NCBI GenBank assembly: GCA_965261165.1
Contig: OZ253445.1
Location: 93,965 to 157,964, forward strand
From: Gammaproteobacteria bacterium
GTDB taxonomy: Bacteria > Pseudomonadota > Gammaproteobacteria > Eutrophobiales > Eutrophobiaceae
Direction of reading: 5' to 3'
DNA: 64,000 bases
Below, in pieces: positions 1,404 to 48,998 of this stretch. The position numbers and the translations under genes are program-made. Under the pieces are notes generated by a model. The model worked only from the letters and a program-made list of their open reading frames with translations, did no database searches and was not told the DNA's origin. The first letter of the stretch is position 1; every line of letters starts with the position of its first letter.

Positions 1404-1415
1404 AAGACCTTTGCA
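1404..1415 (+). mobile_element. IS5/IS1106-like left terminal repeat (AAGACCTTTGCA)
   Basis: 11/12 match to the reverse complement of the TGCAAAGGTCTC ends at 14279-14290 and 44992-45003. Confidence 0.65.
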
Positions 1416-1568
1416 CTTGTGCCCTGTGGGTACTTGTGCCCTGTGGGTACTTGTGCCCTGTGGGTACTTGTGCCCTGTGGGTACTTGTGCCCTGTGGGTA
1501 CTTGTGCCCTGTGGGTACTTGTGCCCTGTGGGTACTTGTGCCCTGTGGGTACTTGTGCCCTGTGGGTA
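1416..1568 (+). repeat. Perfect tandem repeat, 9 x 17 bp (CTTGTGCCCTGTGGGTA)
   Basis: Read directly; no spacers; explains the 17-aa periodic spurious ORFs. Confidence 0.97.
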
Positions 1569-11091: not shown

Positions 11092-13221
11092 TTAATTTAA
11101 ATCTCTGGCGAGTCTAATGCCGACGTGGTCATAGCTAGTATCAGATTCCAGTTTGTCTCTTTTCGTATTTCTAATGGACTGTTGTGGACTGAGATATGCC
11201 CCGCCTCGAACAATTCTGTATGCGCAGTCGCCACCTTCCCAAACTCCATTATCTGTTGGTGCGCCTTTGTAGTTTTCATGCCAGCAGTCTTGCACCCATT
11301 CAGAAACATTGCCTGATGTGTCATGAAGGTTAAATTTATTTGCTTCAAACCTACCCACTTTAGATGGTTTGCGTGGATCCAAGCCTGTCTCGCATCCGAA
11401 GCAGTGCGCTCTTCCCGGTTCTTCATTATAGCCCCACCAAAAAGGAGAATCTTTGCCTGTTGATGCTGCATATTCCCACTCACTTTCACTTAACAAACGA
11501 TATTTATTATTGGTTTGTTCGGAAAGCCATTTTGTATAGTAGTAAGCATCATCCCACGAGACGTAGATGACAGGATGTGTTTCTCTATTCAGAGAAAGAT
11601 CTTTAGGTATTTTTCGATCTGTTGCTTTGGCAAATTTATCGTAATCAGCAAAGGTCACTTCGTATTTGCTCACGGCAAAAGATTTAATATTGACCGTGTG
11701 TCTAGGTCTTTCATCTGCAAAACGAGACGATGAAGAACTACCCATTTTAAATAATCCTGTTGGAATGATAACCATCAGTGGTGATTTGCCACCATTTTTT
11801 AAGTCGTCCTGAAATTCTTTTTTATTATTTAAACCAGATGATAAAGCAGGTTTTGCAGTTTCCGTAACAGCTTTAGTTTTTGGGGTAGCCTTAGATGCTT
11901 CTGCTTCTGTTACTTCTGTTACTTCTGCTACTTCTTCTGTTACTTCTGTTACTTCTGCTACTTCTTCTGTTTCTTCTGTTTCTGCTACTTCTTCTGTTTC
12001 TGCTACTTCTGCTACTTCTGCTACTTCTGCTACTTCTTCTTCTGTTTCTGCTACTTCTACTTTAGAGCTTTTAGAGCTTTCAGTTTCAACTTCATCCGTC
12101 GCAATCGATTCCTTGGCGATACTCTCATCTGATATAGCCTCTTCCAGTACGGGTTCTTCAGTTGTTGGCTCCTCAACGACCATCTGATCAGTAGTAATTT
12201 TTGCGTCGTCAGAGATGAAATAATTACCAATTGCAGCAGCAATGATGACGGTCGCTACTAGGCCAATAATCAGACCGGCTTTGCTTTTTTCAGAATCTTC
12301 ATCATCACTATCGACAGTTGCTGGATGACCATAAGTCTCAGGTCTAGGTTCTGCTGGTGCTTCAATTTTGATGGTGTTATCCATATCTGCGGTATCTAAG
12401 GCATTTGGGGCAGTGTTATCACCATTATTATCGTCTTCTACCACTGCGTCATCAGCGACACTATTGTCAGTAATTCTAATCACGACTGCTGTTGTGTTGT
12501 CTTGTCTTGGCATTGCTGCCTCTTCTACGGCATCCATCAGGGCTTTGGAGCATTCTTTCGAGTTGTCTGCCCAGTTTGAATATTGAATAATTTTCCCTTT
12601 ACTCAAGGTATCCATACCATCAGAGCAAACAATCAGCCTATCGTCGTGTTCCAATGCGAATGGTATTTGAGGGCAGTCGACTTCAGCGATGTCATCACCA
12701 GTAATTGCACTCATCAGCATATTTCTGGACAAGCCTGGTTCAGCATCTGCAGGTGTTCCAGCAGCTTCCATCCTATCCAGAAAGCCACCATAACTATGGT
12801 CAGCATTCAATTTTTTCAGTTCTTTATCGCGTAATAGATACAAATGGCTATCGCCGACACTAACCCATGAGAGTTGGCCTTCTTCAATGAGTGCCCCGAC
12901 AAACGTGCAACCCATGCCATCAAGGGCAGGTGTCTCTTTGATAGTCTCTTCGATCGAGGCATTTGCTTCTAATATGCTTTGATTCAGTAATGCAGCAATT
13001 TCATCCGTAGGATAGCCAGCAGTAACAGATTTATTGAATGCCTGAACAGCCATATTACTAGCCACATTGCCTGCAGCATGGCCGCCCATCCCATCGGCAA
13101 CGATGATGAGAGAATTAGTTTTTCCCTCAGAATCTGTAAGATTCGTGATCAGGAAGGCATCTTCCTGATAATCACGTGCACCATCAATTTGTGAACCTGC
13201 TATTTCTAAATGAAACGTCAT
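11092..13221 (-). CDS. PP2C Ser/Thr phosphatase - TM helix - acidic repeat linker - FGE/SUMF1-like (C-type lectin fold) fusion protein
   Basis: N-terminal RDYQEDA, VADGMGGH, VGDS, CSDG, DNTT; TM GLIIGLVATVIIAAAIG; C-terminal FKMGS, PVIYVSWDDA, RLLSESEWEYAA, GNVSEW, RGG, HVGIRLAR. Confidence 0.85.
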   Translation of the reverse strand: MTFHLEIAGSQIDGARDYQEDAFLITNLTDSEGKTNSLIIVADGMGGHAAGNVASNMAVQAFNKSVTAGYPTDEIAALLNQSILEANASIEETIKETPALDGMGCTFVGALIEEGQLSWVSVGDSHLYLLRDKELKKLNADHSYGGFLDRMEAAGTPADAEPGLSRNMLMSAITGDDIAEVDCPQIPFALEHDDRLIVCSDGMDTLSKGKIIQYSNWADNSKECSKALMDAVEEAAMPRQDNTTAVVIRITDNSVADDAVVEDDNNGDNTAPNALDTADMDNTIKIEAPAEPRPETYGHPATVDSDDEDSEKSKAGLIIGLVATVIIAAAIGNYFISDDAKITTDQMVVEEPTTEEPVLEEAISDESIAKESIATDEVETESSKSSKVEVAETEEEVAEVAEVAEVAETEEVAETEETEEVAEVTEVTEEVAEVTEVTEAEASKATPKTKAVTETAKPALSSGLNNKKEFQDDLKNGGKSPLMVIIPTGLFKMGSSSSSRFADERPRHTVNIKSFAVSKYEVTFADYDKFAKATDRKIPKDLSLNRETHPVIYVSWDDAYYYTKWLSEQTNNKYRLLSESEWEYAASTGKDSPFWWGYNEEPGRAHCFGCETGLDPRKPSKVGRFEANKFNLHDTSGNVSEWVQDCWHENYKGAPTDNGVWEGGDCAYRIVRGGAYLSPQQSIRNTKRDKLESDTSYDHVGIRLARDLN
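11897..12060 (-). repeat. Coding 9-bp degenerate tandem repeat (EVA/EVT/ETE units)
   Basis: Repeated TTCTGTTAC, TTCTGCTAC and TTCTGTTTC units on the + strand. Confidence 0.9.
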
Positions 13222-13415
13222 TATTTAGCTAAATTTCAAAAGTTAATATTTATAAATAGGTTAGTAATCATATAGATTTTTATTTGCATGCCGCTTCAAT
13301 ATGTTATCAGTTTCAAAATCTATCCAGTCACAGACTATAGTGTAACAAGCACCGTGAAGTGCTTGGCATCCTACCAGTGATTGCATATTTCACAAAATGA
13401 ATTGTTATTTTTTTT

Positions 13416-13695
13416 AGGGCCTGTCGATCTTTTGCAAGGGGCGTAAAGAATTTAAAAGAAGCATAAAGAAAAGGCAATCTCGTAAGATTTGTTTCGCCAA
13501 AAACAACCCAACGAGATTGTCATGCTCCGACAAATGCTCACTGATGAACAATGGTCGAGGATACGAACTATCATGCTAAAAGATCGCGTTTATAGCAAGC
13601 CTGAACACAGACATACAGCTGGAAGGGGCATTATACTGGATGCGCACAGGGTATCCCTGAAGTGTTTGGTAAATGGAGTAGTGTTTACAGGTGCT
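13416..13695 (+). pseudogene. IS5-family (IS427/IS1031-like) left end and transposase N-terminal relic
   Basis: AGGGCCTGTCGATCTTT end; ATG 13522 gives MLRQMLTDEQWSRI; frameshifted EGALYWMRTGYP and FGKWSSVYR. Confidence 0.75.
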
Positions 13696-13759
13696 TATGG
13701 CAGTGGCCAGTGGTGGTCTGCCCCCCCAGTATTTTATTATCAACTGGCGGTGAGGCACA

Positions 13760-13894
13760 TTGCGTCTGAATGCTTGATAATGCTAAAAGCACGCTAATTG
13801 AGAGGTTTTATGCTGTTCTGCGACGATTGAAGGAAAATTCTCGCAAAACGAAACTGTTTCGTGCAAAATTTTATAAAAATGAATGATATCGCCT
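13760..13894 (+). mobile_element. 3' non-coding fragment of an IS1106-like element
   Basis: Aligns by eye with 48812-48958 and with the reverse complement of about 32800-32930 (core GACGATTGAAGGAAAATTCTCGCAAAA). Confidence 0.8.
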
Positions 13895-13906
13895 GAGACC
13901 TTTGTA

Positions 13907-13942
13907 CTTGTGCCCTTGTGGGTACTTGTGCCCTTGTGGGTA
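13907..13942 (+). repeat. 2 x 18 bp variant of the 17-bp unit (CTTGTGCCCTTGTGGGTA)
   Basis: Read directly; differs from the 1416 unit by one loop base. Confidence 0.95.
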
Positions 13943-13947
13943 TAACT

Positions 13948-14264
13948 GTCGGAAGTGCGGCTTCAGCCGCGCAAGATAATTGTAGATGGCAGGACTTATG
14001 TACAGGGATGTACGGTATGCCGATTTTGCATGGAGCAAAAATCGGTTATGTACAGGGATGTACGGTATGCCGATTTTGCATGGAGCAAAAATCGGTTATG
14101 TACAGGGATGTACGGTATGCCGATTTTGCATGGAGCAAAAATCGGTTATGTACAGGGATGTACGGTATGCCGATTTTGCATGGAGCAAAAATCGGTTATG
14201 TACAGGGATGTACGGTATGCCGATTTTGCATGGAGCAAAAATCGGCAAAAGTCCCACTTCCGAC
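13948..14264. repeat. REP-like inverted doublet (GTCGGAAGTG-CGGCTTCAGCCG ... AAGTCC-CACTTCCGAC)
   Basis: Perfect 10-bp inverted termini at 13948-13957 and 14255-14264; internal hairpin GCGGCT-TC-AGCCGC; second hairpin GGACTT/AAGTCC split by the 50-bp array. Confidence 0.65.
13996..14245 (+). repeat. Perfect tandem repeat, 5 x 50 bp, each unit with two GGA-loop hairpins
   Basis: Unit TTATGTACAGGGATGTACGGTATGCCGATTTTGCATGGAGCAAAAATCGG, read directly. Confidence 0.97.
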
Positions 14265-14306
14265 CATTTTTTGAATGATGCAAAGGTCTCTGATTAGTCC
14301 ATTTTA

Positions 14307-14335
14307 TTGACAAGTTTATAGGTTTTTTCTAGACT
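14307..14335 (+). promoter_or_regulatory. Sigma70-type promoter for metZ
   Basis: TTGACA-N17-TAGACT. Confidence 0.7.
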
Positions 14336-14340
14336 CAGCG

Positions 14341-14397
14341 GGCATCGCCGATTTAATTCGAGTTTGCGGGTACCTAATTAAAGTACCGCTAAAGAAG
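14341..14397 (+). promoter_or_regulatory. Putative SAM-II-class riboswitch aptamer
   Basis: Ordered SAM-II signature GATTTAA...TTGC...TAAA...GCTAAA directly upstream of a methionine gene; P1 pairing is imperfect. Confidence 0.55.
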
Positions 14398-14400
14398 AAC

Positions 14401-14436
14401 AACCTGCTTTAGCATAAGCTGATTGCAGGTTTTTTT
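14401..14436 (+). terminator. Intrinsic terminator in the metZ leader
   Basis: AACCTGC-TTTAGC-ATAA-GCTGATT-GCAGGTT followed by a T run. Confidence 0.7.
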
Positions 14437-14502
14437 ACGTCTGTTAAGAATGCCCGTTAAATTTTTTTCAGTACAGGTTGCATTGATTATCTGGAGTTAA
14501 GA

Positions 14503-44726: not shown

Positions 44727-45003
44727 GAGACCTTTGTATAATTCGCACCAATTCTACCGAAACAGGTAAAATACGACCATTCTAAAGACCTTAAAGATTA
44801 TTCGTCATGTCTTGAAAAAATATCCTGAAAAGAACCGCCCAAGGTTCGTTCGCAGATGTGCCTTTATGGGCATAAATCAACACAGATTTATGCCGAAAAG
44901 AGCATTATTGTTGCGATAGGCCATATCAATAGCATTGATGTCACTGTTTGCAAGATATTGCCTATATGTTTTGTTCGGTGGTTTTGAATGATGCAAAGGT
45001 CTC
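44727..45003 (+). mobile_element. Internally deleted IS1106-like element (MITE)
   Basis: GAGACCTTTGTATAA ... TGCAAAGGTCTC; transposase-like N-terminal relic MS*KNILKRTAQGSFAD from ATG 44807. Confidence 0.8.
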
Positions 45004-48636: not shown

Positions 48637-48998
48637 CTGAACTGCATCATGGATTAGGTAAGGCACGATATTTAGGGTTAGAGAAGGAACAAGGCCTATG
48701 TTAGGCTGATTGCAATGAGTCATTGCCTTTATAGAGAGAGAGGGAGGGCCTTTATAGAGAGAGAGGGAGGGATGAACCTACTGCAACAAATACGTTATCT
48801 GGAGATATATTATGCCTGAATGCTCGATAATGGATAGGTGACAGCTAAAAGCACGTTAATGTAAGAGGTTTTTATGGTGTTGATGTGACGATTGAGGGAA
48901 AATTCTCACAAAACGAAACCTTTTCATGCAAACTTTATAAATAATAATGATGTTGCCCGTATGTTTTGTTCGGTAGCTTTGAATGATGTAAAGGTCTC
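48637..48998 (+). mobile_element. IS1106-like transposase C-terminal relic and right end
   Basis: LHHGLGKARYLGLEK / NKAYVRLIAMSH / MNLLQQ...A* (stop at 48817), then the shared 3' region and TGTAAAGGTCTC. Confidence 0.8.
48726..48771. repeat. Direct duplication, 2 x 23 bp (CCTTTATAGAGAGAGAGGGAGGG)
   Basis: Read directly; interrupts the transposase relic. Confidence 0.92.

Follow-up and report, generated by a model that had tools for sequence, protein, structure and literature searches.

CsrA/RsmA is among the main post-transcriptional regulators of Gammaproteobacteria, and to our knowledge its known antagonists are dedicated sRNA genes under two-component systems. Several kinds of short repeat are also relevant here. 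REP elements occur in hundreds of copies per genome, carry GT(A/G)G at the hairpin foot and flank a Y1 (RAYT) gene; their loops are the least constrained part. In BOX elements the number of boxB copies varies. Two further groups, IS200/IS605-derived palindrome-associated elements and class C group II introns (the latter insert after terminators), are used below for comparison.

According to a review, the CsrA SELEX consensus is RUACARGGAUGU, in which ACA and GGA are invariant and GGA is placed in the loop of a short hairpin. A 2024 MITE review describes BOX, RUP and SPRITE elements as inserting into one another. The same review derives certain sRNAs of Coxiella burnetii from the MITEs QMITE1 and QMITE2 and gives their roles as unknown.

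The locus considered here lies in a 64,000-nt stretch of DNA (the window) from a gammaproteobacterium of the family Eutrophobiaceae. It contains a 50-nt module with two hairpins (hp1 and hp2) that has very recently been amplified in tandem to five copies. An IS4/IS5-type MITE holds this module in the apical loop of its central hairpin and is itself lodged in other repeat debris immediately upstream of the metZ promoter. The module belongs to a dispersed family of repeats of about 51 nt with a patchy distribution. Judging from the sequence, we tentatively take the array to be a recent slippage expansion of a mobile module that would serve as a CsrA/RsmA ligand when transcribed; we would give this reading somewhat less than an even chance. 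The features are as follows.

13403..13894, no strand assigned: mosaic of other repeats, left of the array-bearing MITE
13895..13906, + strand: left terminal inverted repeat GAGACCTTTGTA, the 12-bp MITE end
13904..13942, + strand: subterminal 18-nt repeat, 2.2 copies, a variant of the 17-mer ACTTGTGCCCTGTGGGT
13948..13957, + strand: 5' arm GTCGGAAGTG of the 10-bp closing stem, in the left half of the MITE core (13941-13995)
13957..13970, + strand: small GC hairpin GCGGCTTCAGCCGC of the MITE core
13990..13994, + strand: CAGGA before the array, part of GGGAC/GUCCC, the hairpin of the core that carries the unit block in its loop
13996..14245, + strand: five identical 50-nt units, each with hp1 GUACA-GGGA-UGUAC, linker GGUAU and hp2 GCCGAUUUUGC-AUGGA-GCAAAAAUCGG
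14255..14264, + strand: 3' arm CACTTCCGAC of the closing stem, in the right half of the MITE core (14246-14278)
14267..14272, + strand: T6 run after the closing stem, terminator-like
14279..14290, + strand: right terminal inverted repeat TGCAAAGGTCTC, the 12-bp MITE end
14307..14335, + strand: metZ promoter-like site TTGACA-17-TAGACT, conserved in the genus, downstream of the MITE

An earlier, sequence-only reading had claimed a perfect 5 x 50-bp array, two GGA-loop hairpins in each unit, ten ANGGA motifs with a CAGGA just upstream, and a 10-bp closing stem (13948/14264) followed by T6; all of these are found where it had placed them. Tandem Repeats Finder reports period 50, 5.0 copies, 100% matches and a score of 500 for 13996-14245, and the hp1 14-mer starts at 14000, 14050, 14100, 14150 and 14200. 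A single unit folds at -16.8 kcal/mol (z -3.6; none of 200 shuffles was equally stable), and each of the five scores about 70 bits against R1, a covariance model that was built from 18 short units and used alongside BLAST. The closing stem is present in both the MFE and the centroid structure of a 341-nt fold (-135.7 kcal/mol, z -9.4). When the whole array is folded on the + strand, adjacent units pair with one another in the MFE; ten separate hairpins thus represent a local or co-transcriptional fold and not the global optimum.

The ten ANGGA motifs lie within 13941-14290. The genome (2,125,472 bp, one contig, 42.9% G+C) was scanned on both strands in 250-nt windows, where the mean count of ANGGA is 0.77 (sd 0.92); the array, with ten, holds the maximum, and its density exceeds chance. 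The second-densest window has eight and lies within the era coding region. An 80-nt unitig of the array is found exactly in 4 of 4 DNA runs, whose metagenome contigs break at repeats, and a joint at 13894>14269 most probably comes from a paralogous copy of a repeat. The element is unmatched in the plasmid collection.

Tandem units of about 50 nt, with open frames of 103-118 aa running across them, invite the proposal of a different repeat product, either a processed RNA array of the type III antitoxin kind or a repeat-encoded protein. We consider this barely credible. The period, 50, is not divisible by 3, and none of the three frames crossing the array reaches the Pfam cut-off for any family; the next gene is metZ, with its own conserved promoter and leader, and not an endoribonuclease toxin; and most members of the repeat family are single units. 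This proposal is close to excluded.

The carrier is, by its sequence, a MITE of the IS4/IS5 type, so the suggestion that the array lies inside a REP or MITE is borne out for a MITE with the ends GAGACCTTTGTA and TGCAAAGGTCTC. With up to one mismatch, the 12-mer end occurs 45 and 49 times in the genome in the two orientations, against about 5 per orientation expected by arithmetic for uniform composition, and these ends bound several kinds of short element. One of them, 1.3 kb long (C1:1730058-1731371), contains a decayed ORF of DDE_Tnp_1/DDE_Tnp_4; the frames inside the array-bearing element match no Pfam family. The same ends GAGACCTTTGTA...TGCAAAGGTCTC, with a different interior, are also seen at the small elements in window 44727-45003 and 48915-48998.

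The MITE type that carries the array occupies about ten places in the genome, and its core is common to the copies at C1:270k, 2108k, 233k, 424k and 1354k. The order is an inverted end, the 17/18-nt repeat, the GC-hairpin core, the GGGAC/GUCCC hairpin, a T-run and the other inverted end. The copy at C1:424k is minimal and lacks the unit block, which in the other copies lies between GGGACT and AAAGTCCC, that is, in the loop of GGGAC/GUCCC. No target-site duplication is found at the array-bearing MITE (CGCCT on the left, TGATT on the right); sister copies show AGAAT (424k), TGATT (67.7k) and AATAA (72.6k and 807k). Since, in addition, its left flank is the interior of another repeat, we presume that the array-bearing MITE was nested or recombined.

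The 17-mer ACTTGTGCCCTGTGGGT is itself expanded, reaching about 25 copies in a sister MITE. Perfect arrays of it in the MITE superfamily indicate that these MITEs are generally prone to internal tandem expansion, and since the 17-mer lacks GGA, slippage alone accounts for the tandem form. These perfect arrays have nine copies at window 1404-1568 and about 25 elsewhere (C1:2108674-2109116; 193117-193421 is also listed).

The mosaic left of the MITE consists of pieces 100% or 99.6% identical to C1:1656372-1656666, 628833-629071 and 618970-619216, and its last 135 nt or so match about 40 copies of another MITE type. The idea that the ORF at 13489-13797 encodes a transposase N-terminus was dropped, as the ORF belongs to no Pfam family. 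Further upstream, the gene at window 11092-13221 (- strand) joins a PP2C phosphatase domain to an FGE-sulfatase domain through an acidic linker, which is encoded by a 9/30-nt tandem repeat at 11896-12058.

The gene downstream of the array is metZ (Cys_Met_Meta_PP, 478.8 bits). Its promoter lies beyond the MITE, which places the array outside the metZ transcription unit. None of the nine other genomes of the genus that hold metZ has the MITE at this locus; we therefore regard it as a young, lineage-specific insertion. The identity of the five copies likewise makes the array very young, and together with the absence from nine sister species it means that the array carries no record of long-term selection. 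As a separate observation, the metZ leader (window 14336-14502, about 100 nt long and lying behind the promoter) ends in a hairpin and T7 at about 14425-14436 and is conserved in eight of the nine other genus genomes with metZ, G005 being different. It has no Rfam match at E up to 10 and could, from its sequence, be a new methionine/SAM-type riboswitch or attenuator.

These facts bear on the strong form of the sequence-only proposal, under which the locus would be a regulated sRNA gene, analogous in function to CsrB/RsmZ, that has a promoter of its own and is dedicated to acting as a Csr sponge. Its attractions are the ten ANGGA loops, the densest in the genome, a closing stem and U6 that offer a possible 3' end, and the lack of any CsrB, RsmZ or RsmY family match elsewhere in the genome. 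It is nevertheless highly improbable, considering that the element is missing at this locus in 9 of 9 sister species, sits in nested mobile debris, consists of identical and thus very young copies, and has neither a promoter nor a GacA box. The promoter scan found no promoter-like site directly upstream of the array; the region has four such sites against 3.5 +/- 1.9 expected, and the best of them is downstream of the element. GacA-type boxes occur upstream of 5 of 93 unit clusters, which is the background rate (5.3% of 2380 control windows). On both counts the scans agree with the earlier remark that no clear promoter or GacA/UvrY box was seen upstream.

A role in cis is conceivable as well: the array could be a REP/SPRITE-type element acting as a back-up terminator, a protector of mRNA 3' ends or an insulator, and here the closed array with T6 would keep transcription that comes out of the repeat debris from reading through into the metZ promoter. 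The closing stem and T6 stand just before that promoter, and the array region folds stably on both strands (z -9.4 and -10.9). Elsewhere in the family, units are found directly behind terminators in the sense orientation. We consider this explanation improbable: the units have no T-run of their own, the simple terminator scan made no call here even though the closing stem and T6 exist, and neither the retention of GGA across unrelated stems nor the G-U asymmetry of the strands (both described below) is explained by it.

A genome-wide search for the 50-mer had been proposed as a check, and the unit does recur: it occurs 12 times in its own genome, and within the window's family R1 detects it in 24 of 34 genera and 74 of 126 genomes, at 1 to at least 46 matches per genome. 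Beyond that family, R1 detects it in 20 of 150 other families of the class. The exact 23-mer TGTACAGGATGTACKGTATGCCG is present in at least 120 stretches, 80 of them taken as loci, from many gammaproteobacterial orders. Among the records listed are Marinobacterium, Motiliproteus, Sedimenticola, Solemya symbionts, Thiolapillus, Neptunomonas, Amphritea, Pseudohongiella, Thalassomonas, Corallincola, Rheinheimera, Lysobacterales and others. No description of the family was found in the main texts of the openly accessible articles that were searched.

The usual unit in the 23-mer records is 51 nt long and consists of hp1, GGTAT and a GC-rich hp2 with (T/G)GGA in the apical loop and AGGA in an internal loop. 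The general scheme of the family is hp1 of the form xxxCA-(N)GGA-UGxxx, a short linker, and hp2, a free stem with an (N)GGA loop. Most members are single units; tandem units spaced at 49-52 nt are nonetheless common, and one locus (L133) has at least four identical copies. In the window's family, the unit is often carried by MITEs with different ends. The sequence-only reading suggested that a sponge may have arisen by tandem amplification and that the module could move. As to the first, no dedicated sRNA gene was built here: the 50-nt unit is a pre-existing module, and tandem arrays of about 51 nt are common elsewhere. The second agrees with the existence of a mobile unit family in many lineages.

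The main rival to our reading is a selfish REP/PATE-like repeat, in which hairpins, loops and linker would be signals for a transposase or nuclease acting on single-strand DNA, the targets at which this enzyme inserts the unit would be exposed loops and the 3' side of T-runs, the tandem form would be neutral slippage, and CsrA would play no part. We think it unlikely, but much in the behaviour of the family speaks for it. Where the unit stands free, it has fixed boundaries (ATGTAC...GCGGCG) but neither inverted ends nor a target duplication. Of the 75 assessable clusters outside MITEs (80 clusters in all), 44 have the unit directly against a run of four or more T, with the GGA strand in sense, and in 39 of these 44 a hairpin of -8 kcal/mol or better lies just upstream, which makes an intrinsic terminator. 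In a sister species (G010), for example, the unit stands immediately behind the terminator of the metZ leader. Such placement implies that most transcription ends before the unit, a point against the CsrA-ligand reading.

The same rival draws on the patchy distribution with near-identical sequence across orders, on nested insertions at fixed internal points (divergent units lie inverted within the linker or the hp2 loop of other units), on four loci interrupted at one site of a transposase-like ORF, and on the random orientation of units in their own genome, where either orientation occurs and 3 of 8 unit loci are antisense to both neighbour genes. The inverted units of composite elements would present UCC loops on the same transcript, which, like the antisense loci, tells against a CsrA ligand.

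Against the selfish repeat stands the Y1 transposase comparison. In six genomes, 14 Y1_Tnp loci (the genes of the own genome and 12 in five other unit-bearing genomes) were compared with the unit, and none has a significant match to it alongside (best E 0.12). Across the 126 genomes the presence of the unit is independent of that of Y1_Tnp (38/36/27/25, odds ratio 0.98), and many unit-rich genomes are without Y1_Tnp, such as G066 (closed, at least 46 matches) and G116. A mobilising enzyme other than Y1 is possible. The REP hallmark GT(A/G)G is not present as such, and the most conserved letters of the unit are the loops and the CA/UG closing pairs, which match the CsrA SELEX site.

Two observations on individual loci are reported here in their own right. 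In L111, L113, L116 and L122, which represent four taxa, a single transposase-like frame is broken by one to three units, each time at the same codon (...FEPLDF, units, ...LVPKPRVNLTRFHGVFAP); the frame may be that of an IS91-type transposase. In L019 (G010:C57) and L028 (G023:C96), the hp2 stem encloses 100-250 nt with five to eight more GGA-loop hairpins, and L028 ends in a T-run; these two are the most CsrB-like in appearance. Their stability is not above that of shuffles (z -1.8 and -0.5, respectively), so the likeness to CsrB rests on the hairpins as read and not on energy.

The evidence for our reading comes from what the family keeps and what it lets go. In an alignment of family units fitted to R1, 12 of 15 model pairs change on both sides. 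Covariation scores 0.192, where shuffles give 0.066 and none of 500 is as high, and slid controls are lower too. In hp1, GGA is retained in 30 of 32 distinct versions, including 16 of the 17 with two or more changed stem letters (CGCCA-GGGA-TGGCG and CTACA-TGGA-TGTAG are examples), and the loop-closing CA/UG pairs scarcely vary. The stems of hp2 vary freely, as in GTCGTTTGTGC-AGGA-GCACACAAACGAC and CACCGGAAATGC-AGGA-GCAATTTCCGGTG. Loops mutating as freely as the stems had been named as an outcome that would speak against a Csr role; instead, the relatives keep their GGA loops while the stems covary.

The counts are to be read with two reservations: the pattern and model by which units were collected contain GGA and so favour it among weak matches, and the copies are related, not independent. 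The 32 nt lying 3' of the search anchor, however, were selected for nothing beyond GCCG. Among 67 distinct stretches from this part, 57 contain GGA against 43.7 +/- 3.5 in shuffles, and 45 have it in an apical loop against 19.5 +/- 3.1. Over 116 distinct units, GGA lies in the loop of 215 of 234 predicted hairpins.

The two strands also differ. The GGA strand has 80 G-U pairs and its complement 36; unit by unit, the GGA strand has more in 50, fewer in 16 and the same number in 49. This asymmetry indicates selection for structure on one of the strands, either as RNA or in single-strand DNA; the corresponding G-T wobble would suit the selfish repeat equally. Against the CsrA-ligand reading, hp1 and linker are nearly identical in different orders, which suggests that the unit spreads horizontally and is under constraints other than CsrA as well. 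Taken together, the invariant CA-GGA-UG tops, the covarying stems and the bias towards the GGA strand would, in our opinion, be best explained by binding of the transcribed unit to CsrA/RsmA, an explanation to which we assign nearly an even chance.

The hp1 of the window fits all twelve positions of the SELEX consensus RUACARGGAUGU, as had been claimed, the consensus being that given in the review. The presence of csrA, a further check that had been proposed, was found: the own genome has one copy (92.7 bits) with a GGA-rich leader, between an aspartate-kinase-like gene and two tRNA-like sequences (labels assigned by eye). In the window's family, csrA was detected in 107 of 126 genomes. Those in which the search missed it are 16 of the 74 with units and 3 of the 52 without (Fisher p 0.02), and a direct protein search of five genomes without it again gave no csrA. 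All 19 genomes without a detected csrA are drafts, many csrA matches lie within 1 kb of a contig end, and csrA is present in 9 of 9 other unit-bearing genomes of at most three contigs; on these grounds we read the deficit as an effect of assembly. It still counts against the CsrA-ligand reading.

The array is not a canonical Gac/UvrY-driven Csr sRNA gene, nor is it a member of the CsrB/Rsm family. Of the Rfam models RsmV matches it best, with 9.9 bits where the gathering score is 100 (E 5.2); over the window only three tRNAs attain the gathering score, and over 15 related loci nothing relevant was obtained. In the own genome, the CsrB and RsmZ models have no match, and the best for RsmY has 21.8 bits against a gathering score of 57, away from the array. 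The weak RsmY matches elsewhere in the genome were considered as sRNAs and rejected, as they do not look like sRNAs.

A search for another Csr-like sRNA by the density of GGA outside ORFs gave only other repeat families, rRNA and the csrA leader. Two further repeats may be recorded here. One is a TTCCTGC-TTTC-GCAGGAA hairpin repeat with GGA in the stem and not in the loop (G000:C1:1952853-1953012, 183613-183772, 689353-689512 and 696761-696920). The other is a three-copy repeat with runs of GGGATT/CGGAAT words (G000:C1:628693-628852, 984923-985082 and 1910163-1910322), which may be the end of another insertion sequence.

If the array is indeed an expanded CsrA/RsmA ligand, its action may be pictured as follows. 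The conserved feature would be a putative CsrA/RsmA binding site. Each unit of a + strand transcript would present two GGA hairpins about 25 nt apart, enough for roughly one CsrA dimer, so that a transcribed array would hold five. The RNA would serve as a decoy for CsrA, and slippage, by changing the number of copies, would set how much it can bind. To be expressed at this site, the array would need read-through from the upstream repeat debris, and the closing stem with U6 would stop the read-through transcript before the metZ promoter.

It is tempting to propose more for the family as a whole, although we consider the following rather unlikely. The 51-nt unit would be a horizontally mobile, terminator-seeking cassette of a CsrA site that spreads high-affinity CsrA hairpins over the genomes of Gammaproteobacteria and brings neighbouring transcripts under Csr control. 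Its copies would together form a distributed sponge, tunable by copy number, and would supply the missing antagonist RNA in lineages like the present one, where no CsrB, RsmY or RsmZ is recognised, while MITE capture and tandem expansion would raise the dose.

Should the ligand reading be true, a mobile repeat with an optimal CsrA hairpin would be a new route by which Csr antagonists are built and tuned, genes would be recruited into the Csr regulon by transposition and slippage, and selfish DNA would be tied to a global regulatory network. In the event, rather unlikely as stated, that the cassette proposal holds, lineages without a recognisable CsrB, RsmY or RsmZ would have a Csr antagonist after all. 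The family deserves attention apart from CsrA as well: it is short, has no inverted ends, is placed precisely behind intrinsic terminators and keeps an identical 23-mer across orders, and no mobilising enzyme was found for it (Y1_Tnp was tested).

With CsrB/RsmY/RsmZ the array has in common many short hairpins with GGA loops, with hp1 corresponding to the SELEX site, and the number of sites would set its capacity. It differs in having no match to an Rfam model, no promoter and no GacA/UvrY box, and its unit is a mobile one that occurs in many copies and in either orientation, as a rule behind terminators.

The likeness to REP, BIME and REPIN elements consists in short extragenic palindromes at gene 3' ends, in multiple copies, with tandem and inverted composites and covarying stems. 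In contrast to them, the unit numbers from 1 to at least 46 per genome, and the same sequence recurs across orders. The unit has no GT(A/G)G head as such (its linker before hp2 is GGTAT, and hp1 starts with GTAC), there is neither a unit-flanked Y1 gene nor an association with Y1_Tnp, and the loops are its most conserved part.

IS200/IS605-derived palindrome-associated elements and class C group II introns resemble the unit in lacking inverted ends and target duplication, in having hairpins at both ends, and in oriented insertion beside a hairpin and T-run. The unit, however, is only 51 nt long, and no linked Y1 transposase or intron ORF was found. For a bacterial MITE giving rise to sRNAs, the QMITE1 and QMITE2 sRNAs of Coxiella burnetii are a precedent; the 2024 MITE review that describes them draws no link to CsrA, a term that occurs 0 times in its text.

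The arrangement as a whole may also be compared with modular MITEs such as BOX of Streptococcus pneumoniae (boxA-boxB(n)-boxC), which likewise combine a MITE-like carrier with an internal module that varies in tandem number, and where, too, elements insert into one another. Those belong to another host clade and have other sequences, and the unit amplified here is also free-living outside its carrier.
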